This document shows positions 3,975 through 34,231 of a stretch of 64,000 nt of DNA, in pieces. This stretch comes from a plasmid. Within the stretch, counting starts at the first letter, position 1. Every line of letters begins with the position of its first letter. The translations under genes and the position numbers were made by a program. The DNA lies in the sequence record AP025670.1; one strand, written 5' to 3'. A model generated the notes under the pieces. That model ran no database searches, was not told where the DNA came from, and saw nothing but the letters and a program-made list of their open reading frames with translations.

Positions 3975-4583
3975 ATGAAAACGATAAAGCGGTTCATCGT
4001 ATGGGTGAATTACGGTCTTGAGGGTTGGAGCATTTTCGGATCGAGCGATGACTGGGATGAAGCGGTATCCATCCGTTCGGAAGCGATAGACGAATGCAAT
4101 ATTGACGAGGAAGACATCATCTTGGCAGAAAACAAAAACGAGCTGGTGGTAAAACCTGCGGCCAAGCAAATGACGGAGTGGCACCGGGAACTGGAAGCCG
4201 TCCTTATGACCTTGGATGACTGCCAGATGGAATGTGACGGTATGACATGGGCAGTAAGCCACCTACTCAATGAAGCGGGTGTACCTCATGACTGCATGTA
4301 TGGCTTTGTGCGAAACGAACAGACCAAGGACATCGTGACACCGCATTTCTGGGTTGTCCTGGATGATGGGTGGCTGGTGGATCTGAGGCTACGCATGTGG
4401 CTTGGCGATCACGACAACATTCCTCACGGGGTATTCCATCCCGATAACGAGCCAGGACTTTTCTACAAGGGAGACCCGGTTCAAAACCATAAAGGGATGA
4501 GACTGGGCAAAGCCGTCCTGGACATCATGACCGACGGAAAACTTTCACATGTGAAAGTTCCTGAACGACAAGACGGAGAGTAA
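3975..4583 (+). CDS. Hypothetical protein
   Basis: 202-aa ORF preceded by the IR operator and a stray iteron copy; the 16-bp palindrome sits in its last codons. Confidence 0.55.
   Translation: MKTIKRFIVWVNYGLEGWSIFGSSDDWDEAVSIRSEAIDECNIDEEDIILAENKNELVVKPAAKQMTEWHRELEAVLMTLDDCQMECDGMTWAVSHLLNEAGVPHDCMYGFVRNEQTKDIVTPHFWVVLDDGWLVDLRLRMWLGDHDNIPHGVFHPDNEPGLFYKGDPVQNHKGMRLGKAVLDIMTDGKLSHVKVPERQDGE
4542..4557. promoter_or_regulatory. 16-bp perfect palindrome CTTTCACATGTGAAAG (copy 1 of 8)
   Basis: Exact palindrome with AA...T flanks, at a gene junction. Confidence 0.6.
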
Positions 4584-4587
4584 TAGC

Positions 4588-5109
4588 GTGGAATTTGATT
4601 ACGACAAGTCAGTATCAAACGCACATCTTGAGGCCGCAGGCTGGGGTATGGATGCCTTTAACCACTCCAACCCATTTGAGAGTCATGTCATCTATGTGCG
4701 TGACTACCGCAACGATCACATCCGCCTGTTCACCATCAAGCAGGCTGACTTCGACACGATAAAGCTGCCACTTCACCTTACCTCCGACATGCTGGCTTCG
4801 GTGATCGCTGAGTTCGTATCGAAGGCAGCAAAAGGAGAGTTGAATACGAAGGAGTCCGACACGCTGGCTCCTGCCTTGGTTGGCTATGCCAAATCAACAG
4901 AAACCTACCGGAGCTGGCGGAGAGTGTCTGGAGTAACAGAGCGATTGCATATGGTCATCAATATCTACGCGGGTTCTGGATTGCTGAGACCTTTCATCGC
5001 TCGGGCTCCTGAGACCGTCCTGACGACCCAAGAGCTACTGGTCTTCTCATCACAGGTTAAGAGCATGGATGTATCCAATCATCCAGAGTGGTTTAGGGGC
5101 CGGAGGTAG
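4588..5109 (+). CDS. Hypothetical protein (GTG start)
   Basis: 173-aa ORF starting 5 bp after the upstream stop. Confidence 0.5.
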   Translation: MEFDYDKSVSNAHLEAAGWGMDAFNHSNPFESHVIYVRDYRNDHIRLFTIKQADFDTIKLPLHLTSDMLASVIAEFVSKAAKGELNTKESDTLAPALVGYAKSTETYRSWRRVSGVTERLHMVINIYAGSGLLRPFIARAPETVLTTQELLVFSSQVKSMDVSNHPEWFRGRR

Positions 5110-5111
5110 TC

Positions 5112-5633
5112 ATGAAGCCAGTTCTCTGGATATTCGTCCTGATCATCGCCCCTTTCGTCATTGCGAAAGTGGACCAGTGGCGCAAACGCGGCATTGGAGA
5201 CACCTGGGCGTGGTGGAAATCAGAGAACATGCCTTATGAGCTGCGCTCGGCCACTCTGTTTTTGTCCGAACAGGACATATCAACCACACAGCCGGTGCCC
5301 ATGCACGGCAGGGTTGATCAGGTGTACCAAACCAAGAATGGGGTTCTCATTCCTTTGGACACCAAGCTGCGCCAGGTAAACCACATCTATGAGTCGGACA
5401 TTATCCAGCTCTCGGTTTACCGGGTAATTCTGTCACACAAGTACAAGGCACCCGTTGCCAAGTACGGCTATGTCCGAACCGTTGTTGAGACAGCGGACGG
5501 GGATAGAGTCCGTTACATCAAGACAAACCTTCTCAGCGAAAAAGAAGTGGTCAAGCTGTGGCACCGCTATCAATCCATCCGTTCTGGTCAGGTAAAAACC
5601 TCCTGTTCCTGTGGCGGAAAGTTTCACATGTGA
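5112..5633 (+). CDS. Hypothetical protein with N-terminal TM/signal segment
   Basis: 173-aa ORF, RBS GGAGG; C-terminal ...SCSCGGKFHM, whose last codons are encoded by the palindrome. Confidence 0.55.
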   Translation: MKPVLWIFVLIIAPFVIAKVDQWRKRGIGDTWAWWKSENMPYELRSATLFLSEQDISTTQPVPMHGRVDQVYQTKNGVLIPLDTKLRQVNHIYESDIIQLSVYRVILSHKYKAPVAKYGYVRTVVETADGDRVRYIKTNLLSEKEVVKLWHRYQSIRSGQVKTSCSCGGKFHM

Positions 5634-5636
5634 AAG
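5621..5636. promoter_or_regulatory. Palindrome GTTTCACATGTGAAAG (15/16 match, copy 2)
   Basis: Near-perfect copy at a gene junction. Confidence 0.5.
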
Positions 5637-5729
5637 TTCTGGATTGAATCAGGGTTGCCCGAATTGGGCAGCTAGGCGGGGTTGCATTTTTGAAAAGTCC
5701 TGTACGCTGGTTGGTATAGGAGGTGAATA

Positions 5730-6203
5730 GTGACCCAGCTTAAACATAACCGCTTCGTCATGTTGGGGGCCTTGGTAGCGACGGTCGTAGCTGCCGCCAA
5801 TGGCTTGAGTTTTCTCACCCTTATGGCTGGTGGAATGACCCTTCTCCAGTTCATGGCTTGGAAGCAACAAGATGCTGTCCGGAGCCGGTTTAAAGCTGCG
5901 AAGGATGCGTTTGAAGCGTTGAACGTCATTGCGTTCGACAAGCACTGGGTAGGTTCAACCGCGACGGTCGCCAAAGTGTCGAACATGATCACTCCGCCCG
6001 AACGACTGGATAAGCCCTGGGCGGTGCAAGTTCTGGCCGTAACCAAAGGTGGGACGTGGTTCGCGGTGGATCTGCAAGTGACCGGCACTGACAAGGTTCA
6101 GATGCTTAGCCTCCACCAGCTTAGTGAAAAGGCGGCAAAGACCATGCTGGCCTTCGACCTCGAAGTGTATGAGAAATTTTTCGGAAAACCTGATGTTGCA
6201 TGA
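5730..6203 (+). CDS. Hypothetical membrane-associated protein
   Basis: 157-aa ORF, GGAGG RBS before a GTG start, hydrophobic N-terminus. Confidence 0.5.
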   Translation: MTQLKHNRFVMLGALVATVVAAANGLSFLTLMAGGMTLLQFMAWKQQDAVRSRFKAAKDAFEALNVIAFDKHWVGSTATVAKVSNMITPPERLDKPWAVQVLAVTKGGTWFAVDLQVTGTDKVQMLSLHQLSEKAAKTMLAFDLEVYEKFFGKPDVA

Positions 6204-6213
6204 GGACAATGTG

Positions 6214-6507
6214 ATGGAAAAAGTCAAAAGCGTAGATGCCGTGGAGTTCACGGCAGCAGATAAGAAGGCGATGACCCATGCGGCATACGCCCAGTGTTTC
6301 TTCATTCTGGCCCAAGTGATGGCATTCCCTTCCCTGGGGGTGGCTGGCGCTATGGTTGCTGCTCTGTGCGGCATGATGCCGTGGTTGACCAAGTTCGCCA
6401 AAGAGGCTCCATCGAAAGCCTTTGGCATGGTGATGGCTTCACTCTGCCTTGCTCCTGTGTACGGGAAACTCTGTGAGCTGGTGGTCCACGCGATTCAGGG
6501 AGCTTGA
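6214..6507 (+). CDS. Small membrane protein
   Basis: ATG at 6214 after GAGGA; two predicted TM helices; the ORF-track start at 6124 overlaps the previous gene. Confidence 0.45.
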   Translation: MEKVKSVDAVEFTAADKKAMTHAAYAQCFFILAQVMAFPSLGVAGAMVAALCGMMPWLTKFAKEAPSKAFGMVMASLCLAPVYGKLCELVVHAIQGA

Positions 6508-6511
6508 GCTT

Positions 6512-7366
6512 ATGGGGGTAGTACGAGTTCCCTACCTCTTGGCTGAGCTGAAAGAACGCGGATGTGCTGATGAATCTGCTCTGGCGCAGGTTATGCAGCC
6601 TGGATGCCGAATTGGAGAGGAAGACCTACGGAAGTTGGCCGCAAATTTAGGGCTTGAAGTGTCCGAGCTGGCACCAGCGCCAGAGAACGCGGCCAACACC
6701 CGGTTCAAAGCAAAGCTGAGAGGAGGTTTGGCCTCCTTTCTTTTTGAGTACGACGGCTGTTTCCGACATGCCGAAGGCTCCAGCCATGCAGAAATGTTGG
6801 GTATCGAGCAAGAAGACGACATAGGTCTTCCGAGTCGAGCTGCTGACGCCATGCTCCTGGAGAAGACGCTTTACCAGGTAATCGCTCGGGCTAAGTACAT
6901 GCTCGGCAAAATCGACAGCAAGTTTGTCAGGTCAGAACAAGCAATCGAGTTCCGTGAGCAACTTGCTCCTGGGATCTTCAAACCAGGTTACAGAGGTTTC
7001 CGATTCAAGGAGGCTGCCGCTGGTGATTTGCCTACTGTCATGATTGACGGTAGGAAGTTCAACTGCGTTGCCAGCATAGCCAGAGCACATGGACTTGATC
7101 CGGTAACGGTGCGTAGGCGCATTGCGGACACCGGGAAGGCCGCAGACAAACTCTCCAATGATGAGTGGAAGCTCATCCTCGCCAAGAAAAAAGGTAAAGG
7201 GAAACCCTTCACCTATCTGGACAGGACCTACAGCAACATTGCTCAGTTCTGTCGTGAGCATCAGCTCAACACCAACCTTGTTTACCAGAAAGTCAAAGAC
7301 CGGGCTGATAGCGCTGATGAAGAGTTCTGGGGACAGATAATCGAAACATGCAAAAGGAAAAACTAA
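6512..7366 (+). CDS. Hypothetical protein
   Basis: 284 aa from ATG 6512 (RBS GGAG); the ORF track extends to 6449. Confidence 0.55.
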   Translation: MGVVRVPYLLAELKERGCADESALAQVMQPGCRIGEEDLRKLAANLGLEVSELAPAPENAANTRFKAKLRGGLASFLFEYDGCFRHAEGSSHAEMLGIEQEDDIGLPSRAADAMLLEKTLYQVIARAKYMLGKIDSKFVRSEQAIEFREQLAPGIFKPGYRGFRFKEAAAGDLPTVMIDGRKFNCVASIARAHGLDPVTVRRRIADTGKAADKLSNDEWKLILAKKKGKGKPFTYLDRTYSNIAQFCREHQLNTNLVYQKVKDRADSADEEFWGQIIETCKRKN

Positions 7367-8325
7367 TGGCAGAAAACAAAGAGATCCCCTGGGAGAAAGA
7401 ACTCATTGAGAAGTACATGTTCACCCTGCATAAAGAGCAGGTGAAAGACCGGCGCTGGCGGACCATGTTGCGTGTGCTTCGCGCATCGGGTTTCGTGCTT
7501 CTCATGATCGGCTTCATCATTTTGGCATCTAATCCGGGTGGGATGCCGTGGCAAAGCGCCAAGGCAGGAGCCCCTCACACCGCGTATATCAACATCCGTG
7601 GTGAAATTGCTGCTGGCACCCTGGCCGATGCTGATCACCTTATCCCGTCCATCCAAGCTGCATTCGACAACCCGAACTCACAAGCTATCGTGCTTCGCAT
7701 AAACAGCCCTGGCGGTAGCCCGGTTCAAGCAGGACGGATTTATGACGAAGTGAAGGCGCAGCGAGCCCTTCATCCGGAGAAAAAGGTCTACGCCATCATT
7801 GATGACATCGGTGCCTCTGGCGGTTACTACATCGCCTCTGCTGCGGATGAAATCTATGCTGACCGCGCCAGTCTTGTCGGTTCTATCGGCGTCATCAGCT
7901 CGGGGTTTGGATTCACCGGCTTGATGGACAAGCTCGGCATCGAGCGCCGGGCTATCACTTCCGGAGAGCACAAAGCGCTTCTCGACCCATTCTCCCCTCT
8001 TACCTCTGACATGAAGAAATTCTGGGAGGGCGTTCTATCGAAAACCCACCAGCAGTTCATCGAACGAGTGAAGGCTGGGCGGGGTGATCGACTGAAAGAC
8101 GACCCAGAGGTGTTTTCTGGATTGCTCTGGAACGGGGAGCAGGCCAAAGACATTGGGCTGATTGATGGCCTGGGTAGTTTGAACTCCGTGGCGCGAGACG
8201 TCATCCACCAGAGCAACTTGGTGGACTACACACCAACCGAAGACATCATCCGGCGACTGACCCAACGAGCGAAGCTCGAAGCCAGTTCCTTCGTGCAAGA
8301 ACTCAGCGCTGTGAAAGTTTACTGA
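7366..8325 (+). CDS. sppA: Signal peptide peptidase SppA (S49 family, 36K type)
   Basis: S49 motifs ...GASGGYYIASAADEIYA...SIGV...; N-terminal TM helix; TAATG start overlap. Confidence 0.8.
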   Translation: MAENKEIPWEKELIEKYMFTLHKEQVKDRRWRTMLRVLRASGFVLLMIGFIILASNPGGMPWQSAKAGAPHTAYINIRGEIAAGTLADADHLIPSIQAAFDNPNSQAIVLRINSPGGSPVQAGRIYDEVKAQRALHPEKKVYAIIDDIGASGGYYIASAADEIYADRASLVGSIGVISSGFGFTGLMDKLGIERRAITSGEHKALLDPFSPLTSDMKKFWEGVLSKTHQQFIERVKAGRGDRLKDDPEVFSGLLWNGEQAKDIGLIDGLGSLNSVARDVIHQSNLVDYTPTEDIIRRLTQRAKLEASSFVQELSAVKVY

Positions 8326-8340
8326 TAGGAGCAGTTTGAT

Positions 8341-9201
8341 ATGACAGAACAAAGTACCAAATCACTACGTCTCGGGGTTGTTGCCGCCATTCTTTTGGGG
8401 CTCGTAGGAACCGGGTTCGGGATCTACCAGTTCGTGAAAGAGAAGGATCTGGCGCAAGAGATCGCCAACGTGAAGTCTACGGTCAACCAGGTGAAGGATG
8501 CCGAAGGCGTCACCTTCAAAAGCAAGGCAGAGTTTGAAGCTGCTGTGGCCGAAAGCATCAACAAGTTTGTCGCGCAGAAACAACAAGCCGACATCGATCA
8601 GAAGTATGCCCAGTTCGAGGCAGCACCTGAGAAGGTCGAAGAAGGCAAACACATCTACGGGGACCTTGGTGCTCGGTTCACGCTGGTGGAGTTCTCCGAT
8701 ATGGAGTGCCCATTCTGCAAGCGATTCCACGACACACCCAAACAAATTGTGGATGCCAGCAAAGGCAATGTGAATTGGCAGTGGAAGCACATGCCTCTCG
8801 ATTTCCATAACCCGGCAGCTCACAAGGAAGCTCTGGCCGCTGAATGTATTGCTGAGCAGAAGGGCAACCGTGGCTTCTGGGTCTTCGTTAACGACATTTT
8901 CCACCATACCCAGGGGAATGGTGGCGGTGTTGCTGACCTGGCCTCTGTTGTCACTGGTGTTGGTGCTGATCTGGATGCGTTCCGGGAGTGCCTCGGCTCA
9001 GGAAAGTACGAAGACAAGGTTGAAGCTGACATCCAGAAAGCCAAGAGCTATGGCGTCAACGGGACACCAGCCACTTTTGTAGTGGACAACCATACCGGCA
9101 AGAGCCAGCTTCTCGGCGGCGCTCAACCGGCGCAAGCCATCATGGCCGTGATGCGAAAAATGATGATTGAGTCGCAACAAGACGACTCCGCGAACCAATA
9201 A
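8341..9201 (+). CDS. Thiol:disulfide interchange protein, DsbA/DsbC-like thioredoxin fold
   Basis: CPFC active-site motif (…SDMECPFCKRFH…), N-terminal membrane anchor, 286 aa; this gene is usually labelled dsbC in IncC annotations. Confidence 0.75.
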   Translation: MTEQSTKSLRLGVVAAILLGLVGTGFGIYQFVKEKDLAQEIANVKSTVNQVKDAEGVTFKSKAEFEAAVAESINKFVAQKQQADIDQKYAQFEAAPEKVEEGKHIYGDLGARFTLVEFSDMECPFCKRFHDTPKQIVDASKGNVNWQWKHMPLDFHNPAAHKEALAAECIAEQKGNRGFWVFVNDIFHHTQGNGGGVADLASVVTGVGADLDAFRECLGSGKYEDKVEADIQKAKSYGVNGTPATFVVDNHTGKSQLLGGAQPAQAIMAVMRKMMIESQQDDSANQ

Positions 9202-9204
9202 AAA

Positions 9205-9220
9205 CTTTCACATGTGAAAG
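9205..9220. promoter_or_regulatory. Palindrome CTTTCACATGTGAAAG (copy 3)
   Basis: Exact copy immediately after the dsbA-like stop. Confidence 0.6.
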
Positions 9221-9234
9221 TGGAGTGAGAACTG

Positions 9235-9663
9235 ATGATCAAGATTACAACTAAATTGGGATGCCTTCTGGCGGGGCTGCTTGTCCTGTCGGCTTGCTCA
9301 AGCGTCCCTCAGCCAAACAACGAATACGCGAAGGCCTTGGATGATACCAAACAGGTATGCGCTGCCTGTGCCCTGGTTGGTAATGACCTGCTGGTTGCCC
9401 TCAACAAGTCATGCGATACACCCATGACCCCGGAGACTCTTACCGGCGTCATGAACAGTAACCCGATGTTTGCCGCCATGATGGCAATTAACTCCATTGG
9501 TGGAACTGACTTTTATCAGGTTTACCGTGATGCGGCCATAGACACCCTGCGGTGCAATGAAATGGACAGTTGGCCTGATCGGACCAAGGTGCGTTTCCAG
9601 CAGCCCGACATGCAAAAGGCGCTGGCCTTGAGGGTTTCTGCCAGACAGCAGAAGGCAAATTAA
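9235..9663 (+). CDS. Lipoprotein (hypothetical)
   Basis: Lipobox LLVLSAC S; 142 aa. Confidence 0.6.
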   Translation: MIKITTKLGCLLAGLLVLSACSSVPQPNNEYAKALDDTKQVCAACALVGNDLLVALNKSCDTPMTPETLTGVMNSNPMFAAMMAINSIGGTDFYQVYRDAAIDTLRCNEMDSWPDRTKVRFQQPDMQKALALRVSARQQKAN

Positions 9664-9679
9664 CTTTCACATGTGAAAG
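9664..9679. promoter_or_regulatory. Palindrome CTTTCACATGTGAAAG (copy 4)
   Basis: Exact copy, begins 1 bp after the stop codon. Confidence 0.6.
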
Positions 9680-9719
9680 TCAGGCTCTCCGGGGCCTGAT
9701 TTCACTATGAGGTGAATCT

Positions 9720-11073: not shown

Positions 11074-11082
11074 GAGGGGGCA

Positions 11083-15434: not shown

Positions 15435-15983
15435 ATGAACAACCTGCCCCTACTGCTCGATGCAAGAGAAGCCATTGACTACTACCACCAGCATCCAGGC
15501 ATGACTGATGCAGAAAAGGCCTATGTGGTCGCGTTCCTAAGCGGAGAGGGGCGTTCAAACAGTCAGATCAGAGAGGATCTGGGTATTGAGAAGGTCTATA
15601 CGGTTACACACCTGAAACGCGCCGGTACGCTATCGGAGGAAGAGCTAACACTCTGGCTCAGAAATCCACGCAAGATCACCCTGGGGCATGTGAGGGCCGT
15701 GGCTAAGTTACCTTTCAGCAAGAGAGAAAAGCTCCTGAGGGATCTCCTGCATACCAGGACACCGGTTCATAAATTTGAGGCGATAGCGAAGGGCAAAGAA
15801 GTGGACAGGGATGCAGACATTAAGCGCCTGGAGACCCTGATGAGCGATGCTACGGGTAGGCCTATCAAAGTTCGCTATAACCCCGCGAAGCGCTCCGGGG
15901 AACTGACGCTGGGATTCTTCACGCTCGATGACCTGGATGACGTGTGCAAGGCTTTGGGGTTTGATCCAAGCGAGCAGATGTAA
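15435..15983 (+). CDS. Hypothetical protein, possible DNA-binding
   Basis: 182-aa ORF. Confidence 0.5.
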   Translation: MNNLPLLLDAREAIDYYHQHPGMTDAEKAYVVAFLSGEGRSNSQIREDLGIEKVYTVTHLKRAGTLSEEELTLWLRNPRKITLGHVRAVAKLPFSKREKLLRDLLHTRTPVHKFEAIAKGKEVDRDADIKRLETLMSDATGRPIKVRYNPAKRSGELTLGFFTLDDLDDVCKALGFDPSEQM

Positions 15984-15992
15984 ACCAGAAAA

Positions 15993-16008
15993 CTTTCACA
16001 TGTGAAAG
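15993..16008. promoter_or_regulatory. Palindrome CTTTCACATGTGAAAG (copy 5)
   Basis: Exact copy after the stop; 23 bp upstream of IR operator 16031. Confidence 0.6.
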
Positions 16009-16030
16009 TCTTGCAAGGTGTCTTTTTATT

Positions 16031-16060
16031 GTTTACAGTATCATAAAATGAATCTGTAAA
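16031..16060. promoter_or_regulatory. IR operator family member (GTTTACAGTATCATAAAATGAATCTGTAAA)
   Basis: Same dyad family; upstream of the 16073 gene. Confidence 0.55.
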
Positions 16061-18845: not shown

Positions 18846-18872
18846 TTTACAGTATCACATAATGATACTATG
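18846..18872. promoter_or_regulatory. IR operator family member (TTTACAGTATCACATAATGATACTATG)
   Basis: Dyad family. Confidence 0.5.
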
Positions 18873-18901
18873 ATGTTGTTAATTTACTTGGGGAGGCGCT
18901 T

Positions 18902-19165: not shown

Positions 19166-19328
19166 GGTAAAAACGGCTATGCCGTTTTTTATTTGTCTAT
19201 TACGGCATCACATTATAAGCCTGTAAATGCTGAATCTGTAATTGCCCAAAATGGGCGTGAGCAGGGGCGGGGTGTGAGGTCGTTCTAAGGCAAAATACTT
19301 TGTACTGGCAGAACAAAGAAAGAATGAA

Positions 19329-19344
19329 CTTTCACATGTGAAAG
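19329..19344. promoter_or_regulatory. Palindrome CTTTCACATGTGAAAG (copy 6)
   Basis: Exact copy 16 bp upstream of ATG 19360. Confidence 0.6.
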
Positions 19345-19359
19345 TTTTTGGGGTACGGG

Positions 19360-20293: not shown

Positions 20294-20324
20294 ATTTACA
20301 GCATCATAAAATGAACTTATGATG
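20294..20324. promoter_or_regulatory. IR operator family member (ATTTACAGCATCATAAAATGAACTTATGATG)
   Basis: Dyad family, upstream of the AAA ATPase gene. Confidence 0.5.
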
Positions 20325-22954: not shown

Positions 22955-24132
22955 TGAGAAGGACAGGGCGCGTCCCCCTTCTTTTGCTGGTTGGTCTCAT
23001 GGTCGCAGCTCCTGCGGCCTTTGCCAGTGACTTTGTGACTGGCGTAATGGTGGGGCAAATGCTCTCAGATGACTCAGGCAGCAAGAAGGCAGAAGACACA
23101 GGCCCGGAGAGTAAAACGGTCATTGATTACCATGAAGGTCAGCCGGTTGTGACCAAAGTGGAGGCCTTCAAAAGTAACAAATGGCGCAAGCTGGATGGCC
23201 CTCAGGGCGGCTATTTTGTTTGCCCAGGTGAATACCGTAGCTATTCGGGAAGGCTGCGTTGTCGCGTCCATGATGACGGGCTCAATGGTTTTATGGGCGG
23301 TATGACTGATGCTCAGGAGCTACCGCTTCAAGAAGCTCTGACCAAGTTGGAAGGTAAACCCATCTCCCTGCAAACCATTGAAGTCCACGGCAACAACCTG
23401 GCAGTCAAATACCAGTTAGCACCACCAGCACAAACGCACGTCAAAACTCAGGATCTGGGGGTGGTCAAGCAGGATGGTGAAACGCAGAAGTCTGCCAGTC
23501 AACAATCAGCGTCATCCACAGTGACTGCACCAAAGAGTGAACCTCCCAAGCAGATTAGTGCTGCACAAGACACCGACCGCAATACCAGTGCGTTTCAAAG
23601 TCCGTTCGAGGAGGTAAGTGACTCCATGATCGGTCTAATGGATAGCTCTTTCGTCAAAGTCATAGCGGGGTTGATGCTGGTGTTTGGGGTTGCTAGTGGA
23701 ATTATGAGGCAGAGCCCATCAGGAATTGTGATGGGGATAATGCCTGCAATTATGATCATGACCGCGCCAACGGTTATTCGTACCATGTTCGATACAGGCG
23801 CGGCCAGTACCAAGCCAGTGGAAGATAGCGGAAGCTCATTTCCTTTCTTCTTGGTGGCAATAGTGCCGGTGCTGATTTTCTTTGCCTATAGAGCTTTTAT
23901 GAACAACCGGAGCGACTCCGAAATTGATGAGTTGTTAAGAGAAGCCCGACGTGCTGAAAGGGCTGAACGACCAAGCAATGAGCCTCCCTCAGTGGATGAA
24001 CTCCGTGAGCGCCAGCAACAAAACCCAGAAAGAGAACCGGTGGTTGTCAGCTCATCAGCTCCGGCACCAAAGGTGCAAAAGGAAGAGCCAATCGAAGTAC
24101 AGCCAGGCAAGCGCAAAATTATTTTGGATTAG
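22948..24132 (+). CDS. Secreted/membrane protein with C-terminal KRKIILD tail
   Basis: Signal peptide, central TM hairpin, charged C-terminal region ending …QPGKRKIILD; its N-domain is paralogous to the 24488 product. Confidence 0.55.
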   Translation: MVMRRTGRVPLLLLVGLMVAAPAAFASDFVTGVMVGQMLSDDSGSKKAEDTGPESKTVIDYHEGQPVVTKVEAFKSNKWRKLDGPQGGYFVCPGEYRSYSGRLRCRVHDDGLNGFMGGMTDAQELPLQEALTKLEGKPISLQTIEVHGNNLAVKYQLAPPAQTHVKTQDLGVVKQDGETQKSASQQSASSTVTAPKSEPPKQISAAQDTDRNTSAFQSPFEEVSDSMIGLMDSSFVKVIAGLMLVFGVASGIMRQSPSGIVMGIMPAIMIMTAPTVIRTMFDTGAASTKPVEDSGSSFPFFLVAIVPVLIFFAYRAFMNNRSDSEIDELLREARRAERAERPSNEPPSVDELRERQQQNPEREPVVVSSSAPAPKVQKEEPIEVQPGKRKIILD

Positions 24133-26053: not shown

Positions 26054-26055
26054 AC

Positions 26056-26658: not shown

Positions 26659-26689
26659 TGTTTACAGTATCAAAAAGTGATGCTATAAA
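26659..26689. promoter_or_regulatory. IR operator family member (TGTTTACAGTATCAAAAAGTGATGCTATAAA)
   Basis: Dyad family upstream of the ParB-like gene. Confidence 0.5.
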
Positions 26690-26717
26690 GTGAGCAAGTC
26701 ACAAGGAGAACCAACGA

Positions 26718-27656
26718 ATGGCTGTTATCAACTCACTCCGCGCTCTCAAAGGCGTAACCGCCCCCGAAGAACTGAAAAAAGGGGATGGATTCACTATCTC
26801 TCCTCAGCTTCTGCTGGAGGAAGAAGGGTTTAACACCCGTGGCGCTTTCTGCGAGAACTACTACGAGCGCCCGGACATCAAAGCTGGTATTCGAGTGCTG
26901 GCCGATGCTTACAAGCGTGGCGACTATGTTCCGCCGATCATCGTCAAAGTTATCGACGGAAAGGTGTATGTCCGTGAAGGTCATCGCCGTCGCCGCGCCA
27001 TCCTGCTTGCTATCGAGGAAGGTGCCGACATCCAGTTCGTGCAGGTCGTAGAGCACAAGGGCGATGAAGCCGAACAGAGCCTTCTGATCGCCACCAGCAA
27101 CGATGGGCTCCCTCTTTCTCCACTTGAGCGAGCCGTGATCTACGCTCGGCTTGCAAACTGGGGGTGGAGCGACCAGATGATTGCCCAACGTGTTGGCCGC
27201 TCGGCTGAGCACGTTCGTATCGCCCGTGCCCTTCTGGAGATGCCTCTGGAACTGAAACGGATGATTCAGGAAGGCTCTGTGGCTGCCACCTACGCTCAGG
27301 AGCTCTACAACGAGCACGGCACCAACGCTGTTGAGATCCTGAAAAAGGCGCAGGAAGAACAGGCCAATGGCAATGACGGCAAGAAGGCCCCGAAAAAACT
27401 GACCAAAAAGTCTGTCGAGAAAGGTCCCCGCCTGGGCAAAAAGGTGGTTGAAGCCATGCACCGAGGCGTGAGCTCTATTACCAGTCGTCTGGACAACATC
27501 AAGCCGAACGATGACGGTGAAACGTTCACCCTTACCCTGAGCCGGGAAGATGTTGATGCGTTTCAGGAGCTGAAAGCCAAGCTGGCGGAGCTGGAGCCCA
27601 AAACTGACGAGTCCAATGAAGACCAGCAAGAGCTGGATTTGGCGGGTAATCAGTAA
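26718..27656 (+). CDS. ParB/Srx-domain protein (ParB-like nuclease domain; KorB/ParB paralogue)
   Basis: ParB box II-like GHRRRRA; 312 aa; lysine-rich linker. Confidence 0.7.
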   Translation: MAVINSLRALKGVTAPEELKKGDGFTISPQLLLEEEGFNTRGAFCENYYERPDIKAGIRVLADAYKRGDYVPPIIVKVIDGKVYVREGHRRRRAILLAIEEGADIQFVQVVEHKGDEAEQSLLIATSNDGLPLSPLERAVIYARLANWGWSDQMIAQRVGRSAEHVRIARALLEMPLELKRMIQEGSVAATYAQELYNEHGTNAVEILKKAQEEQANGNDGKKAPKKLTKKSVEKGPRLGKKVVEAMHRGVSSITSRLDNIKPNDDGETFTLTLSREDVDAFQELKAKLAELEPKTDESNEDQQELDLAGNQ

Positions 27657-27853: not shown

Positions 27854-28091
27854 CAAGAAATCGTCTGAACTAGCCAGGCTGAGGCGTCAGCATCAGCTAG
27901 TTTGCTCTGTCATCGCAGCCTTGCTCATCTGTGCAGGTATATATGGGACCGTTGCACGTTTGGGCTTCATCCTGATGGCGCCATTGTTTGTTATCGCCTT
28001 AGGTGTGTTAGTCGATGCGTTCCTGCCAAGGGTAAGTTGGTTCTTCTGTGTGCGGGACGTGAGAGACATATTTGGGTGGAGAAAACGATAG
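27840..28091 (+). CDS. Small membrane protein
   Basis: about 83 aa, 2 TM helices; contains a stray iteron-like sequence at about 27940. Confidence 0.35.
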   Translation: MMNSDKKSSELARLRRQHQLVCSVIAALLICAGIYGTVARLGFILMAPLFVIALGVLVDAFLPRVSWFFCVRDVRDIFGWRKR

Positions 28092-28333
28092 TGGCGAAGT
28101 TGAAGGTTTATGGCGGGATCACTTATGGGGCCGAGGGGCAGTTCAGAACTGTCGTTGCGGCCACAAGTAAGAGCAAGGCTGCTTCAATTCTGAATATCAC
28201 GATTTACCAGATGAATAGCTGGTGGACGGAGACTTTTAACAAGTACGAGGTCGAGGCGGCGATGTCTGAGCCGGGGGCTATTTTTTCAAAGCCTCTCGAT
28301 GGCAGAGGCCCATTTGTAAAGCAGGAAGGATAA
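28091..28333 (+). CDS. Small hypothetical protein (GTG start)
   Basis: The in-frame GTG overlaps the upstream TAG; the ORF-track version (27902) overlaps the previous gene. Confidence 0.3.
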   Translation: MAKLKVYGGITYGAEGQFRTVVAATSKSKAASILNITIYQMNSWWTETFNKYEVEAAMSEPGAIFSKPLDGRGPFVKQEG

Positions 28334-28335
28334 TT

Positions 28336-28698
28336 GTGAGAAGTGTTTTTGTATGGTTGAAGGCCGGGGCAATACTGGCTTTCCTATTCATCGGTATTGC
28401 TGGTGCTGTCAACCGGGTCTATTGGGTTAACAGCCAAGGTTTGAGCCAGGGGTCGATGTCATCCACATGGGTTAAAGAAAAGTTTGGCCTAGACCTTGGT
28501 GCAATGTGCCGTTATGACAAACCCCAGCATGTCGAGTTCAAAGTCCTTCCTGATCAGACAATCCAGTTCCGCTGCTCATGGTTTGAAGGTGGCGGATTAA
28601 CCTGGTGGCCTTTCTACACCGAGCATGATGTAAAGAGCGCCGAGGCGACCTCTGTGCTCAATGACATCTTCCAGGGTACGGAGGGGCATGATGAGTAG
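28336..28698 (+). CDS. Secreted hypothetical protein
   Basis: 120 aa, signal peptide, RBS AGGAAGGA, GTG start. Confidence 0.45.
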   Translation: MRSVFVWLKAGAILAFLFIGIAGAVNRVYWVNSQGLSQGSMSSTWVKEKFGLDLGAMCRYDKPQHVEFKVLPDQTIQFRCSWFEGGGLTWWPFYTEHDVKSAEATSVLNDIFQGTEGHDE

Positions 28699-29935
28699 CC
28701 AGCTAGAACTTTTTCATGTCCAAGAGGCGTATGCCAAGGCCGATAAGCCGCTATCGAATGAGGAGCTCTACGATTCAGTGGCAGAGCTCGCTGGAATCCC
28801 GAAAAGCGCTCTGAATGAACAAAGTGAAATTGGCAAGGCAAAGGTCAAGCGGAGCAAGCTGAAAAGACAGATACGCTGGTATCAGCAAACCCTCAAGTCG
28901 ATGAACCTTCTCCAGAAGGTGGACGGCGAGCGGGGTGTCTGGGAGCTCTCAAGCAAAACCAAGAAGGGCCTGCATGAAGCGCTTGGTGGCATTCGACTTG
29001 TCGCCTATTCAACAAATCTTGGGCTGGCGGTGTGGTCAAACAACAAGAGCTTTTTCTCTGACCTCGATGAGCCGGTGCATCTGTGTGTGACATCTCCGCC
29101 GTTTCCGCTCCGAATACAGCGTGGCTATGGAAACGTTGATGAAGCCAAATGGGTGGATTTCATAACCCAGGCGCTCGAACCGATAGTCAAGAACCTGGTG
29201 CCAGGAGGAAGCGTTGTCCTGAATGTCAGCAATGACATCTTCGAGGCCAAGAGCCCCTCCAGATCTCTCTATGTTGAAAGAATGGTGCTGGCGCTCCATG
29301 ATCGGCTCGGGCTGTCTCTCATGGATAGATGGCCGTGGATCAACCTGTCAAAACCACCAAGTCCAACCCACTGGGCTTGTGTGAACCGTTACCAGTTGTG
29401 TGCCGGGTGGGAGCCTGTTTATTGGTTCACCAACGACCCTGACAGGGTGCGTTCTGACAACAGAAGGGTCCTGATCCCTCATACAGAGAAACATCAGAAG
29501 CTGATGGCTCAAGGGGGGGATAACCGAGTGGTCAGTTATGGTGACGGGGCATATCGACTGAGAGGGAACGCATTCTCTAATGTCACAGAAGGACGGATAC
29601 CGAAAAACGTTATCCAGCGCGGCCACCGTTGTGCGGATACGCTGGAGCTTCGGAGAATCGCTAGAGAACTGGGGTTGCCACCGCACCCGGCAATGTTCCC
29701 AACAGACATACCTGAGATGGCTATCCGCTTTCTGACGGAAGAGGGCGACCTTGTTGTTGATCCGTTCAGTGGGTCGAATAAGAGCGGGTTGGCCGCAGAA
29801 AGGAATAACCGGCGCTGGATCGCCTGTGACATCATTCTTGAGTACATTCGTACCCAGGCGGAAATGTTCACCGGCTTTGATGGATTTTGGATTAACCCAG
29901 CCATAGCAACAGTGGGCGGGGGAGCGTTGAATTAA
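28688..29935 (+). CDS. DNA methyltransferase, N6-adenine/N4-cytosine type (beta-class order), orphan
   Basis: Catalytic motif IV (TSPPF) lies N-terminal to the AdoMet motif I (VVDPFSGSN). Confidence 0.75.
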   Translation: MMSSQLELFHVQEAYAKADKPLSNEELYDSVAELAGIPKSALNEQSEIGKAKVKRSKLKRQIRWYQQTLKSMNLLQKVDGERGVWELSSKTKKGLHEALGGIRLVAYSTNLGLAVWSNNKSFFSDLDEPVHLCVTSPPFPLRIQRGYGNVDEAKWVDFITQALEPIVKNLVPGGSVVLNVSNDIFEAKSPSRSLYVERMVLALHDRLGLSLMDRWPWINLSKPPSPTHWACVNRYQLCAGWEPVYWFTNDPDRVRSDNRRVLIPHTEKHQKLMAQGGDNRVVSYGDGAYRLRGNAFSNVTEGRIPKNVIQRGHRCADTLELRRIARELGLPPHPAMFPTDIPEMAIRFLTEEGDLVVDPFSGSNKSGLAAERNNRRWIACDIILEYIRTQAEMFTGFDGFWINPAIATVGGGALN

Positions 29936-29948
29936 GAGAACAATACCT

Positions 29949-30398
29949 ATGAGTTTAAGTTTTATCGCAAGAGTCTTGCGCCAATTGGCAATTATGTTTG
30001 TCCTCTCCGTGCTTATTATGGCCGGATATATCTACTATGCCGGTAAACAGCATCAGCAGGCAGCAATCAACTTTTGGGGTGATCAATACCAGCCTGATGC
30101 CATCTCGACGCAAATTGATTGGGGGTTTATCGGTAACTGGGTTATTCCTCGCGGGGGGCCAATTATTTCTCCGGGCATTGCTGGAGTGTGTCCCAATACA
30201 CCACTTCCCGTTGTGCCTCTTAAAATTGGTCCTGATGGCCGGGGTTACGTTCTCTGTGGTATTGGAAGTGAGGCTGTCGCTACCAGCTTTGATGTCAATG
30301 ACATCCAGGATGAAGAGATACGAAACACATTAAAAACGATGTTTGAGGAAGAATTTGAAAAAACTGGTAAGGGGGATAAATGGACGCTCAAGAACTGA
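29949..30398 (+). CDS. Secreted/membrane hypothetical protein
   Basis: 149 aa, N-terminal TM. Confidence 0.45.
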   Translation: MSLSFIARVLRQLAIMFVLSVLIMAGYIYYAGKQHQQAAINFWGDQYQPDAISTQIDWGFIGNWVIPRGGPIISPGIAGVCPNTPLPVVPLKIGPDGRGYVLCGIGSEAVATSFDVNDIQDEEIRNTLKTMFEEEFEKTGKGDKWTLKN

Positions 30399-30691
30399 AC
30401 CATATGATAGCTGAGGCCTACAGCCGGGATCTGCAAAAGCCTGAGCTGGTATCGTTCAAAGAGGTGAGTCGCTGGGGGCGTAAGTACGGTTTCCCCGTCG
30501 TATGCACCCTAGCCGATGAAAGTGAAGAAAAGCAGATTCACTGGGCTGCCAGTTTGCTCATTCAAGTAGCCGGTACTTGGCCGCGAGAAGATATGCCGGA
30601 ATTGCTCACACCGGAACAGGGCTCCGCGCTGCTCAACGATGCGAAGCAGTTATTGGCGAATGGGCTTGGGGCAGCAAATCAAATGCGCTGA
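30380..30691 (+). CDS. Hypothetical protein
   Basis: 103 aa; a terminator follows (30710-30737). Confidence 0.45.
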   Translation: MDAQELNHMIAEAYSRDLQKPELVSFKEVSRWGRKYGFPVVCTLADESEEKQIHWAASLLIQVAGTWPREDMPELLTPEQGSALLNDAKQLLANGLGAANQMR

Positions 30692-30770
30692 CAGCACAAT
30701 CTTTGTCAACAAGCGGCCTTTATGGCCGTTTTTTTGTTTCAAGTTTGTTTTGACAGAACCATAATTAGAT

Positions 30771-30800
30771 ATTGCAGTATCATTTTATGATCGCTACAAT
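30771..30800. promoter_or_regulatory. IR operator family member (ATTGCAGTATCATTTTATGATCGCTACAAT) in the parA promoter
   Basis: Dyad family, immediately followed by palindrome copy 7. Confidence 0.5.
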
Positions 30801-30802
30801 CT

Positions 30803-30818
30803 TTCACATGTGAAAGTT
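30803..30818. promoter_or_regulatory. Palindrome CTTTCACATGTGAAAG (copy 7), about 45 bp upstream of parA
   Basis: Exact copy. Confidence 0.6.
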
Positions 30819-30864
30819 TGGGGGTGGTCTGGATCACCTGCGAGAAACCAAAATAGAGGTGGGT

Positions 30865-31650
30865 ATGGCAAAAGTAATCAGCTTCGCCAACCAGAAAGGC
30901 GGAGTGGGTAAGAGTACCCTCTGTATCCAGCAGGCCTTTTATCTGGCGTTACAGAAGAAAAAGAAAGTGCTGGTCTTGGATATGGATGGTCAGGGGAACA
31001 CGTCCTCTCGACTGGCCCCCAGACGAGAGCTTGAGGATGGTGACTACGAGCCCATCCTCACAGGAACCAAAACCGCAGAGCTGTTCGCTTACGAGCTGGA
31101 CGGCATTGAGGTCATGCACTGCCCTTGCGGTGCAGACCTCATTCATACGCCGAAAAACGACCCGGATCTGTTTGAGATGGAGGCTGTGCCTCTTGACCAA
31201 GCCATGAATCCGGCTCGCCATTTGGCTGAGCTGTTTGAGAACTACGACTACGTGCTGATTGATTGTCCGCCTAGCCTCGGCAGAAAGCTGGTGGCAGCGT
31301 TGGTGATGTCTACCCATGTAGCATGTCCGGTAAAGCTCTCTGGCTTCGCTGTGGACGGCGTAGAAGGTCTCCTGAACACGATTATTGGTGTGCGCGAGGC
31401 GTACAACCAAGATTTGGAGATCCTGGGCATCGTGATCAACGACATGGACCGCTCTGTCAATCACGACAAAGCCCTCAAGTCGCTGGAGAACACAGTTCCG
31501 GATCTGCTGTTTGAGAACAAAATTATGCACCGGCCTCCGCTCGATACGGCGACGACTGATGGCATCCCTGTCTGGGAGCTTCGCTATGGACATGTCGCGG
31601 CCAAAGAGGTTGAGGCGGTGTTGGAAGAACTATTAGAGAAGGTGGGCTAA
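30865..31650 (+). CDS. parA: Partition ATPase ParA
   Basis: Deviant Walker A KGGVGKST; 261 aa; followed by parB. Confidence 0.9.
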   Translation: MAKVISFANQKGGVGKSTLCIQQAFYLALQKKKKVLVLDMDGQGNTSSRLAPRRELEDGDYEPILTGTKTAELFAYELDGIEVMHCPCGADLIHTPKNDPDLFEMEAVPLDQAMNPARHLAELFENYDYVLIDCPPSLGRKLVAALVMSTHVACPVKLSGFAVDGVEGLLNTIIGVREAYNQDLEILGIVINDMDRSVNHDKALKSLENTVPDLLFENKIMHRPPLDTATTDGIPVWELRYGHVAAKEVEAVLEELLEKVG

Positions 31651-31653
31651 GCG

Positions 31654-32835
31654 ATGGCATTGAACAATTTAAAAGGCCTGTCCGAACTTGCTAAAGCCGC
31701 CAAAGGCAAGAAAGGCAAAGAGGTTCTTACCGTACCTGTTGACGACGTTGTATCCAAGGTCCAGGTTCGTAAGCGCTTCCGTAACATTGAAGAGCTGGCG
31801 GCAACCTTGCTGACCGAAGGGCAGCAGTCTCCGATCATCGTGTTCCCGAAGAACGAAGAAGGCAAGTTCGTCATCCAGAAAGGGGAGCGGCGTTGGAGAG
31901 CATGTAAACACGCTGGTATCGAGACCATTGACCTGGTGGTGAATGATAAGGTCCAGAACAACTTGGACGAGACTGCTGGTGAGCTGATCGAAAACATCCA
32001 GCGGGATGACTTGACTCCGGTAGAGATTGCCGAGGCGTTAAACCTGTTTATTGAAGAAGGTTGGAAGCAAAAGGATATTGCTGATCGGCTCGGTAAGAAT
32101 ATCACTTTCGTATCTACGCATCTGTCGTTGCTCAAGCTACCTGACTGTGTGCGTGAGTTATACGATAATGAAGTATGTTCTGATACAGAGACCTTGAATA
32201 ACCTTCGTCTCTTGTTCGATCTGAATGAAGAAAGATGTCGCGCCGTCTGCGCGGTGGCTATGTCTGACGGGATTACTCGTAAACAAAGCCGTGAGCTGCT
32301 GAATGATGCCAAACGTATCAAAGACGAAATGGAAAAAGGCCCACTGACTGGCTCCCACCAGAATGATGAGCTTGGCGCTGGCAACACCGACGAGCAATCC
32401 CTCAACTCGGGTGGGGATGGTACGTCGGAACAAACCGGGAATGACGACCTGAACCTTGCCCAGGAGGAACTGGAAGGGGGTAAAAATTCCAATGGTCAGG
32501 ACGATGATGACGAAGACCCTTTGCGTGATGAAGAGGGTGAGCACAAAGATCCTGTCAAGCAGCCAGATAACAGCGGCAAGGACAAAGATGAAGAAGGCGG
32601 TGATGCTCTTCCTCCTCTGCCGAAGGACAAGGAATGGAAGAACGTCCGGGCTGACAGTTTGATTTTTGCTGTCAACGTTAACCTGGATGGCGAGACCAAA
32701 CGTGGAGTCATCATGACCGACCGTGTTGCTCTGGTTCCGTCTACTGTCTGGGTTAAAACGCTCGATGGCGAAGGCAAGGAAAAGCATGTTCATGTGCCTG
32801 TGTCAGACATTGAACTCCTGAGTGTCGAAGGCTAA
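31654..32835 (+). CDS. parB: Partition protein ParB
   Basis: ParB box II GERRWRA, HTH, acidic Asp/Glu-rich linker; 393 aa. Confidence 0.9.
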   Translation: MALNNLKGLSELAKAAKGKKGKEVLTVPVDDVVSKVQVRKRFRNIEELAATLLTEGQQSPIIVFPKNEEGKFVIQKGERRWRACKHAGIETIDLVVNDKVQNNLDETAGELIENIQRDDLTPVEIAEALNLFIEEGWKQKDIADRLGKNITFVSTHLSLLKLPDCVRELYDNEVCSDTETLNNLRLLFDLNEERCRAVCAVAMSDGITRKQSRELLNDAKRIKDEMEKGPLTGSHQNDELGAGNTDEQSLNSGGDGTSEQTGNDDLNLAQEELEGGKNSNGQDDDDEDPLRDEEGEHKDPVKQPDNSGKDKDEEGGDALPPLPKDKEWKNVRADSLIFAVNVNLDGETKRGVIMTDRVALVPSTVWVKTLDGEGKEKHVHVPVSDIELLSVEG

Positions 32836-32877
32836 TAAAGGAGGCCCAGCCAGAGAGGTTGGGCCTGTCAAGAACAG

Positions 32878-33156
32878 GTGAATATGAAGATCTCACAGGA
32901 CATGAAAAGAAAATTTGCTTTGGTGAATGCCCTGTCTAAAACGGAGAAGCCAAGTCTCCAAGACCTTCACAAGGCAACAAATATTCCTGAATCAACGATC
33001 AAGAGACAGTTGTCTGCCCTGCGTGATGAGTTCGGAATGAATATCTTGTTCGTCAGGGAGTCTACCGGCGAACGAGGTGCCACCGGCTACTACATGCTGA
33101 CAGACTGGGGGATCTTAGACAGGTCTTCGTTCTTGAACCGGTACGGAAAACTGTAA
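32878..33156 (+). CDS. Small winged-helix protein downstream of parB (position corresponds to IncC '053')
   Basis: 92 aa, HTH-like …IPESTIKRQLSALR…; a bidirectional terminator follows. Confidence 0.55.
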   Translation: MNMKISQDMKRKFALVNALSKTEKPSLQDLHKATNIPESTIKRQLSALRDEFGMNILFVRESTGERGATGYYMLTDWGILDRSSFLNRYGKL

Positions 33157-33183
33157 GGTGCCATAGAGCAGCGCATTGAATGC

Positions 33184-33210
33184 AAAACCCGCCAATCGGC
33201 GGGTTTTTTT
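33184..33210. terminator. Bidirectional rho-independent terminator
   Basis: AAAACCCGCCAATCGGCGGGTTTTTTTA. Confidence 0.6.
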
Positions 33211-33844
33211 ATGCTGCCACGGTAGCGGCGGTTGCTGGAGGTTTTTCGGCGTAGTAGGCGATGTTCTTGGTTCGTCTGCTAAGGGTGTCTATGCCGACGA
33301 TACTCAGCGTTTTGGGAGTGGTATTGCGGGACTCGAAATAATGGAATAGCTGGATCATGCAGCACTTCACCATCAACGGATCGATGTCTTCCAGGTAGAT
33401 TGAGGCTTCTCTCAATGCTTCGGGACCGTGGTTCTCGATCAGGTTTTCCATCCAGTGAATGGCGTTGATGCCAGAACCACAGCAGGGCTCATAAAAGTCT
33501 GCCGAAGACTGTGAGCCAACAATGAGTGACATCAAGCGGCCAATCTCTGGAGGAGTGGGGAAGTAATTGGTGCCCTTCTTGTGGAAGCCAGACATGCTTA
33601 GGACGTAACCCAAAACATCGCTGGTGGGGTCGCGCTTAATGGCGGCAGACAGGACGTGAGAGAGCTCGAAGGCGACCGGCTGAAGTTCTTCCGGGATCTC
33701 CTCCTTGGCTGGGTATAGGCCAGTCTGCAAGTATGCCCACTGGTCAATAAAGGCCTCAACAAACCGAGATGTGCCCATTCTGTATCGGGACTGCTCGATG
33801 AGAGATAAAGCCTTGGATGTAAGTTGCTGTGTTTCTGGTGACAT
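33209..33844 (-). CDS. Short HsdM-like N6-adenine methyltransferase-domain protein that lacks the catalytic NPPF/Y motif
   Basis: Motif X-like NYFPTPPEIG and motif I YEPCCGSGINA are present; the protein ends before motif IV. Start chosen at ATG 33844 (GGAG RBS). Confidence 0.55.
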   Translation of the reverse strand: MSPETQQLTSKALSLIEQSRYRMGTSRFVEAFIDQWAYLQTGLYPAKEEIPEELQPVAFELSHVLSAAIKRDPTSDVLGYVLSMSGFHKKGTNYFPTPPEIGRLMSLIVGSQSSADFYEPCCGSGINAIHWMENLIENHGPEALREASIYLEDIDPLMVKCCMIQLFHYFESRNTTPKTLSIVGIDTLSRRTKNIAYYAEKPPATAATVAA

Positions 33845-33935
33845 AAGCGCTCCAGTTTGTTCTGACGAAACATTCAAGAGGTAGAAACGAAGAACCCCGC
33901 CGAAGCGAGGTTCTTTGCTTTCCTGCCTGATCGCC

Positions 33936-34079
33936 TTAATGCCGAAGCAAAGACGTCTTGATAAAGTCGGGGCAACCGGACATTTCCCGGTCGATGAAGT
34001 CCTGACGTTTCGCCAGCGGCCATTTCATGAACGCCGCGAGCGGGATGCGCTTATTCGTGTTAGTATTGCCTTGCAGCAT
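33936..34079 (-). CDS. Unlisted 47-aa ORF with a strong RBS
   Basis: AAGGAG 7 nt before ATG; MLQGNTNTNKRIPLAAFMKWPLAKRQDFIDREMSGCPDFIKTSLLRH. Confidence 0.35.
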   Translation of the reverse strand: MLQGNTNTNKRIPLAAFMKWPLAKRQDFIDREMSGCPDFIKTSLLRH

Positions 34080-34158
34080 AACAAAGCTCCTTAATTGCTT
34101 GATTGTGTTGTAAGGGCTGCAACGAAGGTCGAAGAGCGATGCGGCCCTTATTTATGAT

Positions 34159-34185
34159 TATTACAGCATCATAAAATAATATCAA
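34159..34185. promoter_or_regulatory. IR operator family member (ATTACAGCATCATAAAATAATATCAAG)
   Basis: Half-site conserved. Confidence 0.4.
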
Positions 34186-34215
34186 GAGACAATAAAACGA
34201 TACCAAGAAACAAAA

Positions 34216-34231
34216 CTTTCACATGTGAAAG
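34216..34231. promoter_or_regulatory. Palindrome CTTTCACATGTGAAAG (copy 8)
   Basis: Exact copy between two IR operators upstream of 34398. Confidence 0.6.

Follow-up and report, generated by a model that had tools for sequence, protein, structure and literature searches.

The operator OB of KorB on the IncP-1 plasmids RK2/RP4 reads TTTAGCSGCTAAA, and the chromosomal parS consensus bound by Spo0J/ParB reads tGTTNCACGTGAAACa, with half-sites that abut. Among the major carriers of resistance genes, including those for carbapenemases, are the IncC plasmids, which rely on ParABS to be inherited stably; islands of the SGI1 family exploit the parS sites, riding on the IncC plasmid and then expelling it. 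Here we analyze a palindrome repeated along 64,000 nucleotides of plasmid DNA (sequence record AP025670.1; "the window" is this whole stretch). An initial annotation of the window had reported eight copies of a 16-bp palindrome, CTTTCACATGTGAAAG, at operon junctions and had proposed a centromere-operator network of the ParB/KorB type. We are highly confident that the palindrome is the multicopy parS centromere of an IncA/IncC-type ParABS partition system. The observation is real, but the identification is already known: the element was described as the IncC parS in 2024 by Muranyi, Szabo, Acsai, and Kiss, who asked why SGI1 destabilizes IncC plasmids (Nucleic Acids Res 2024; PMC10954446).

On plasmid R55, the site was described as a 22-bp inverted repeat, AAAC-TTTCACATGTGAAA-GTTT, located in the parA promoter and in 13 further backbone copies, including those inside R55_6 and R55_08 and near R55_13, R55_14, R55_24, R55_29, parAB053, and R55_55 (PMC10954446). 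Purified ParB, which the second gene of parAB053 encodes, shifted three different sites in gels with competition controls, and the shifts were unusually high. A 4-bp insertion at the site center abolished binding, and the bare 14-bp core was not bound, which means that the flanking bases are needed. A minimal SGI1 replicon with one parS was stabilized only with ParA and ParB both supplied, while 053 was dispensable (PMC10954446). All eight window copies map one-to-one onto the positions listed for R55, and the R55 equivalent of copy 7 was one of the sites tested by gel shift (PMC10954446). Together with the KorB domain of ParB (see below), these gel shifts and the ParA- and ParB-dependent stabilization bear out the earlier proposal of a centromere served by a KorB-like ParB. 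No evidence against the centromere identity was found.

Exact copies of CTTTCACATGTGAAAG start at window positions 4542, 9205, 9664, 15993, 19329, 30801, and 34216, and a copy with one mismatch, GTTTCACATGTGAAAG (15/16), starts at 5621; with up to two mismatches allowed, no further match occurs in the whole 64 kb. The initial list of seven exact copies and one 15/16 copy is therefore correct except for the start of copy 7, given as 30803. The number of copies is, as had been claimed, not due to chance, since only 0.06 matches are expected (maximum, 2) and none of 100 dinucleotide-preserving shuffles reached eight. With flanking bases included, the copies are as follows, no strand being assigned to them.

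4539-4560: parS copy 1, AAAC TTTCACATGTGAAA GTTC, in the 3' end of the coding sequence (CDS) 3975-4583
5618-5639: parS copy 2, AAAG TTTCACATGTGAAA GTTC, the 15/16 copy, overlapping the stop codon of CDS 5112-5633
9202-9223: parS copy 3, 3 bp past the stop codon of the DsbA-like open reading frame (ORF) 8341-9201; the ATG at 9235 follows after 14 bp
9661-9682: parS copy 4, which abuts the stop codon of CDS 9235-9663, with a G+C-rich hairpin after it
15990-16011: parS copy 5, 9 bp past the stop codon of the ParB_C-domain gene 15435-15983
19326-19347: parS copy 6, 87 bp downstream of an AcaCD box at 19243, with the ATG at 19360 following 15 bp later
30798-30819: parS copy 7, which overlaps the -10 box in the promoter of parA (PparA)
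34213-34234: parS copy 8, with the AcaCD box of the vcrx036-type operon (34398 onward) 67 bp downstream of it

Intergenic DNA makes up only 11.8% of the backbone, yet six of the eight copies lie wholly within it (binomial P = 6e-5). The other two had been read as lying in the last codons of genes, ending in SHVKV and KFHM-stop. Both readings are correct, and copy 2 indeed encodes K-F-H-M and the TGA stop that ends CDS 5112-5633; copy 1, translated as L-S-H-V-K-V, sits in the final 42 bases of CDS 3975-4583, with 8 codons still to come ahead of the stop.

The window up to position 45316 is IncC backbone and differs by two substitutions from plasmid pBML2537 of Providencia stuartii (NZ_AP022377.1; IncC; 152,754 bp); p.BML2526 is not colinear with the window. 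Bases 28000 to 36000 match more than 1,000 plasmid records, nearly all of them conjugative IncC plasmids from Enterobacterales, Vibrio, and Aeromonas. The whole-plasmid motif count that the initial annotation had called for gave 14 exact cores in pBML2537 (4543, 5622, 9206, 9665, 15994, 19330, 30802, 34217, 52916, 73986, 89376, 112202, 140380, and 147107). The scan of the reassembled plasmid found no core in the integron and transposon region of pBML2537, and the scan of the window, with up to two mismatches, found none in the acquired DNA after 45316. Clustering of the sites near repA is not significant, with 10 of 14 within 35 kb and about 7.5 expected.

The 14-bp core TTTCACATGTGAAA is common to all eight window copies, with T right after the 3' G in each and A at position -2 in seven. 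Over the 14 copies, the information content is about 2 bits in the core and 1.3 to 1.9 bits at the adjoining C/G and A/T positions, and it falls to a mean of 0.18 bit, the background level, outside positions -4 to +16. The palindrome thus stands alone, as a site of about 20 bp. That it might belong to a longer mobile repeat, which had been named as a possible refutation, is ruled out by these flanks, as the 14 copies share no similarity past about 20 bp. More broadly, one could see in it a piece of a REP- or MITE-like repeat, a restriction-modification target, or an RNA hairpin of a terminator. Several DNA methyltransferases are encoded on the plasmid, and as RNA the 22-mer forms a hairpin of -6.4 kcal/mol, with a T run after some copies. 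The hairpin has only two G-C pairs, however, far too weak for a terminator, and the terminator scan called none of the copies; a target of 16 to 22 bp is also much longer than usual restriction-modification sites. Since protein binding and centromere function have been published as well (PMC10954446), we give this group of explanations practically no chance.

The par operon lies downstream of copy 7.

30772-30800, plus strand: PparA, with -35 box TTGCAG (30772-30777), 17-bp spacer, and -10 box TACAAT (30795-30800)
30865-31650, plus strand: parA, a Walker-type ATPase (AAA_31/CbiA) with deviant Walker A motif KGGVGKS
31654-32835, plus strand: parB, 393 amino acids, with ParB_N, HTH_ParB, and KorB domains (Pfam; KorB E = 1.7e-38)
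32884-33156, plus strand: ORF 053, a 90-amino-acid winged-helix protein, the third gene of parAB053

From the end of the copy 7 palindrome it is 48 bp to the annotated start codon of parA (ATG at 30865), close to the 45 bp estimated earlier, and parB lies directly after parA in the same operon. We read PparA from the sequence; it is consistent with the BProm prediction that PMC10954446 quotes and is kept in IncC plasmids, the Vibrio rumoiensis plasmid, and pVAS19. Among solved structures, ParB matches RK2 KorB best (8qa8, E = 8.8e-21), followed by Noc and Spo0J. ParB contains the cytidine triphosphate (CTP)-binding motifs KGERRWRACK and IENIQRDDL, both of which can be aligned to the structures of KorB and Noc. 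Since these motifs of the ParB/KorB CTPase family are kept, ParB is most likely of the clamp type. In such a mechanism, it would load at each parS as a dimer, close into a clamp, and slide onto flanking DNA, and partition complexes would form along the backbone from its 14 dispersed loading sites.

Two proteins of the window, ParB (31654) and a ParB-like protein (26718), had been proposed as binders of the palindrome. Both belong to the ParB family by Pfam, and a third protein carries a ParB C-terminal domain.

26718-27656, plus strand: ParB-like protein with HTH_ParB domain and GHRRRRA motif, whose promoter carries the second inverted repeat described below
15435-15983, plus strand: 182-amino-acid protein with ParB C-terminal dimerization domain, which is the R55_24 "parB-like regulator" of PMC10954446

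The proposal holds for ParB 31654, given the published gel shifts, and lacks support for 26718, for which no evidence of parS binding was found. We nevertheless considered that the palindrome is mainly the operator of 26718-27656 or 15435-15983 acting as a global repressor, with ParB 31654 merely sharing the site. ParB-family domains occur in both proteins, and the 26718 protein is 97% conserved between IncC and the V. rumoiensis plasmid, where DNA identity is about 88%. On a contig of Alcanivorax nanhaiticus (23-1671), parS stands between a 15435-like gene and a 26718-like gene (69% identical), all three in direct row, unlike on the IncC plasmid, where the two genes are 11 kb apart; this row hints that the two ParB-like proteins may work together with a parS site. 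Against such a role, ParB 31654 has been shown to bind and, with ParA, suffices for stabilization (PMC10954446), and 26718 is just 27 to 32% identical to ParB over part of its length. Moreover, pVAS19 has 13 sites without either homolog, and the V. rumoiensis plasmid keeps all its sites without the 15435 gene, so neither accessory protein is a general binder. The explanation is very unlikely.

Conservation of the sites supports their function. On the IncC-like plasmid of V. rumoiensis (about 88% DNA identity), all eight sites recur unchanged at the same places, and copy 2 has its G variant there too. At 88% identity, a 16-mer stays unchanged by chance in about 13% of cases, so the retention of all eight shows strong purifying selection on the sites. 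Although this plasmid lacks the 15435 gene, it keeps the adjoining parS copy 5 and the second inverted repeat. The pAQU-type plasmid pVAS19 of Vibrio alginolyticus, with ParB 58% and ParA 77% identical, carries 13 exact copies, all of them with the 18-bp form ACTTTCACATGTGAAAGT; as in the window, one follows the PparA -10 box and one lies in the 3' end of the orf3975 homolog. No homolog of 15435, 26718, orf16073, or orf18902 was found on pVAS19. For the 15435 protein, these two plasmids also dispose of a role as universal binder of either motif. The 202-amino-acid orf3975 protein belongs to a family without assigned function, whose homologs are 30 to 67% identical and contain parS within the 3' end in many unrelated elements. 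The position is kept in pVAS19 (138269-138673) and in at least 10 other elements, which implies that a DNA-binding site has been preserved inside a coding sequence across a long evolutionary span.

We scanned for the exact 18-mer in one genome per species and obtained at least 120 stretches, where roughly nine are expected by chance (an estimate from the collection size). Among the matches listed, most are in Vibrio, Shewanella, Marinobacter, Idiomarina, Pseudoalteromonas, Alcanivorax, and Photorhabdus, while those in Heimdallarchaeota and Firmicutes bins are probably due to chance. The site is widespread in marine Gammaproteobacteria. Plasmid pTfr153 of Thiothrix fructosivorans has an unrelated backbone and a ParB that is 63% identical over the N-terminal half, with the core upstream of parA and at two places elsewhere. 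It also carries a second, IncP-like parA-parB-trfB set as well as a variant palindrome, GTTTTACATGTAAAAC (C to T in each half-site), at 23611 and 28627, which may be the site of the other ParB. In Cupriavidus pampae (NZ_CAJZAG010000021.1, 4758-5681), a seven-site array of CTTTCAC-NN-GTGAAAG stands upstream of parA-parB, the ParB being 32% identical. A site upstream of parA is thus found on pTfr153 and the Cupriavidus contig as well. A remnant in Photorhabdus caribbeanensis (5840-7585) has parB (65% identical) and 053 (88%) without parA; its PparA-like promoter is recognizable, with parS decayed to CCTTCACTATGAAAAAC and an intact parS about 330 bp upstream.

The recognized element consists of two ACTTTCAC half-sites with a 2-bp gap. 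It shares the TTTCAC/GTGAAA half-site with chromosomal parS, as well as a binder that is a GERRxRA ParB of the CTPase type. It differs in that the half-sites are 2 bp further apart (TTTCAC-AT-GTGAAA) and in the outer bases, AC/GT instead of TG/CA, and hence it is not the chromosomal 16-bp palindrome with abutting half-sites, TGTTNCACGTGAAACA. The 2-bp spacer was seen in all 178 sites of the loci examined and the abutting form in none. In the Cupriavidus array, the central dinucleotide is AT three times, GT twice, and AC and GC once each; because it varies, the two central bases behave as a spacer. CTP, sliding, and likeness to chromosomal half-sites are not mentioned in PMC10954446. Judged from sequence comparison, this would be a parS class made of a chromosomal half-site pair set 2 bp apart and used by diverse ParBs, new as far as we found. 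Its predicted users are marine Gammaproteobacteria and at least one betaproteobacterium, and we count it as a minor addition rather than a discovery.

The initial annotation had further proposed that the sites form an operator network. At PparA, where parS overlaps the -10 box, autorepression by parAB053 is modest: whole IncC plasmids repress the promoter 8- to 11-fold, while ParAB053 alone, from a mini-replicon or an arabinose promoter, represses it only about 1.5- to 1.7-fold, from which the authors deduced an additional PparA regulator elsewhere on the backbone (PMC10954446). They also suggested ParB as a possible global regulator and named this as ongoing work; no later paper on this was found in the literature searched. 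SGI1 has two parS mimics, the direct repeats DR1 and DR2, and a lower copy number was seen once the SGI1 parS 25 bp upstream of the PS004 AcaCD box had been mutated, which was read as ParB helping to control the S004-repA operon (PMC10954446). In the window, three copies (5621, 19329, and 34216) are 34 to 87 bp from boxes (TGCCCRAAWTGGGC) of the activator AcaCD.

5656-5669, plus strand: AcaCD activator box TGCCCGAATTGGGC, adjoining copy 2, which lies 34 bp upstream
19243-19256, plus strand: AcaCD-type box TGCCCAAAATGGGC, a motif match only, upstream of copy 6
34284-34297, plus strand: AcaCD activator box, adjoining copy 8

The AcaCD motif and the vcrx012 transcription start at the box of copy 2 are given in Table S3 of PMC4207636. 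Box 19243 lies about 115 bp upstream of the 19360 gene, which puts copy 6 in the predicted 5' untranslated region; the surrounding region is absent from pVCR94, the plasmid of the AcaCD ChIP-exo. Plasmid-wide, 5 of the 14 parS sites are within 90 bp of a box. Four AcaCD promoters with adjoining parS are listed in PMC10954446, and box 19243 is not among these. The sites may also modulate neighboring promoters, the best candidates being these five AcaCD-dependent promoters.

Several observations weigh against such a regulatory extension. Overlap with a sigma-70-like promoter is seen in only one of the eight window copies, copy 7, and the promoter scan predicted no promoter over copies 4542, 9205, 9664, and 15993, which lie at gene junctions; copies 1, 3, and 4 are inside the transcription unit vcrx008-vcrx026 predicted from pVCR94 RNA sequencing (PMC4207636). 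Coding sequence holds 4 of the 14 copies, and repression of PparA by ParAB053 alone stays below 2-fold (PMC10954446). CTP binding and sliding by the IncC ParB are read from its motifs, and no ParB transcriptome or ChIP data were found in the searchable literature. The sites might serve as a centromere only, that is, as redundant ParB loading sites placed at gene boundaries because a 20-bp palindrome is tolerated there, without regulation except at the parA copy. The distance of most window copies from promoter-like sequences, the weak effect of ParAB053, and the four copies within ORFs fit this explanation, as do copies 3 and 6, only 14 to 15 bp before start codons, and copy 4 with its abutting stop. 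The five AcaCD-adjacent sites and the copy-number phenotype of the SGI1 mutant (PMC10954446) speak against it, and so does conservation of the site positions down to 58% ParB identity, though partition alone could explain the latter. We consider a pure centromere quite possible, at somewhat less than an even chance. A regulatory role beyond PparA is a hypothesis only, which the positional analysis neither supports nor excludes.

A second dispersed motif bears on the additional PparA regulator. Inverted-repeat operators had been reported beside some parS copies, and they do exist, at 16032-16060 and 30774-30796, with related copies at 34163 and 34362. The one beside copy 5 is representative.

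16035-16057, no strand assigned: second inverted repeat, ACAGTATCAT-N3-ATGAATCTGT, beside copy 5

Its consensus is roughly TTT-ACAGTATCAT-N3-ATGATACTGT-AAA. Copies are at 3747-3769, 16035-16057 (24 bp downstream of copy 5, together with a promoter-like site), 18849-18871, 20298-20320, 26664-26686, 30774-30796, and 34362-34384; a half copy is at 34163, and weaker copies occur elsewhere. The decamer ACAGYATCAT, with at most one mismatch, is found 21 times in the window versus 6.6 expected. The repeat coincides with four of the five promoter-like sites of the region that score 10/12 (18846-18874, 20295-20323, 3779-3752, and 34387-34359). Where the motif reads TTTACA, its start is the -35 hexamer and the repeat occupies the spacer. 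Besides the PparA spacer, at least six other promoter-like sites contain it. PparA has the order -35 TTGCAG, GTATCATTTTATGATCG, -10 TACAAT, and parS, and its stretch ATTGCAGTATCAT is kept in IncC plasmids, the V. rumoiensis plasmid, pVAS19, and the decayed Photorhabdus remnant. Given this layout and conservation, the second repeat is a good candidate operator of the additional PparA regulator, and the protein that binds it is probably what chiefly represses the partition operon.

The small ORFs downstream of second-repeat promoters (16073, 18902, 34398, and 3975) gave no Pfam DNA-binding domain. By eye, the repeat is not a LexA box, its CTG/CAG arms being opposite to the LexA order, and its likeness to a Fur box is weak. 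No plasmid paper was found when the repeat was searched in the literature as a sequence string, a search that strings printed in figures escape. Muranyi et al. deduced that the backbone PparA regulator is the target of the SGI1 protein Sci (PMC10954446). Combining these strands, the IncC ParB could be a KorB-like, CTP-gated clamp on 14 parS sites that needs a second repressor, the binder of TTT-ACAGTATCAT-N3-ATGATACTGT, which would be both the missing PparA regulator and the target of Sci. We offer this as a speculative proposal, rather unlikely to hold in full.

The IncC backbone of the window ends with the IS26 terminal repeat GGCACTGTTGCAAA starting at 45317, a break that falls just upstream of the mobH/traI start in pBML2537. 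The DNA beyond it is acquired and includes a sucrose phosphotransferase system operon and other mobile-element genes. One of the two substitutions is at position 8581, where the window has CAA and pBML2537 has TAA; the DsbA-like ORF 8341-9201 is consequently intact in the window and interrupted and unannotated in pBML2537.

Compared with known systems, the window copies agree with the IncC/IncA parS of R55 in the 14-bp core TTTCACATGTGAAA, the AAAC/GTTT flanks, the 14 backbone positions, and the binder (PMC10954446), and nothing differs in kind, the window being another IncC plasmid close to pBML2537. The SGI1 mimics DR1 and DR2 have the same sequence and the same ParB binder; they differ in having been hijacked by a mobilizable island that rides on and destabilizes the plasmid, and they are not in the window. 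The RK2/RP4 system of KorB and OB shares with IncC the KorB domain, about a dozen dispersed palindromes (14 on pBML2537 and 13 on pVAS19), one of them at the par operon promoter, and a second, candidate operator adjoining at PparA, like OA beside OB at korAp. The IncC site is not an OB site, since its sequence is ACTTTCACATGTGAAAGT and not TTTAGCSGCTAAA; it spans 18 to 22 bp as against 13 bp, and most IncC copies lie elsewhere than at promoters. As to a KorA or TrbA partner, none was identified on the IncC backbone, for which no systematic search for KorA homologs was made. Another difference is that repression by the IncC ParB was measured at PparA only (PMC10954446).

As given initially, the parS finding adds nothing new. 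What the analysis adds beyond the 2024 paper is the wider distribution, the half-site reading, a fifth AcaCD-adjacent copy, and the second, promoter-embedded motif; its residual value lies in that motif, the distribution, and the half-site architecture. Tuning of AcaCD-controlled transfer genes by ParB, or a binder of the second repeat, would either way show if RK2's two-repressor logic is found again in a clinically dominant plasmid family unrelated to it.

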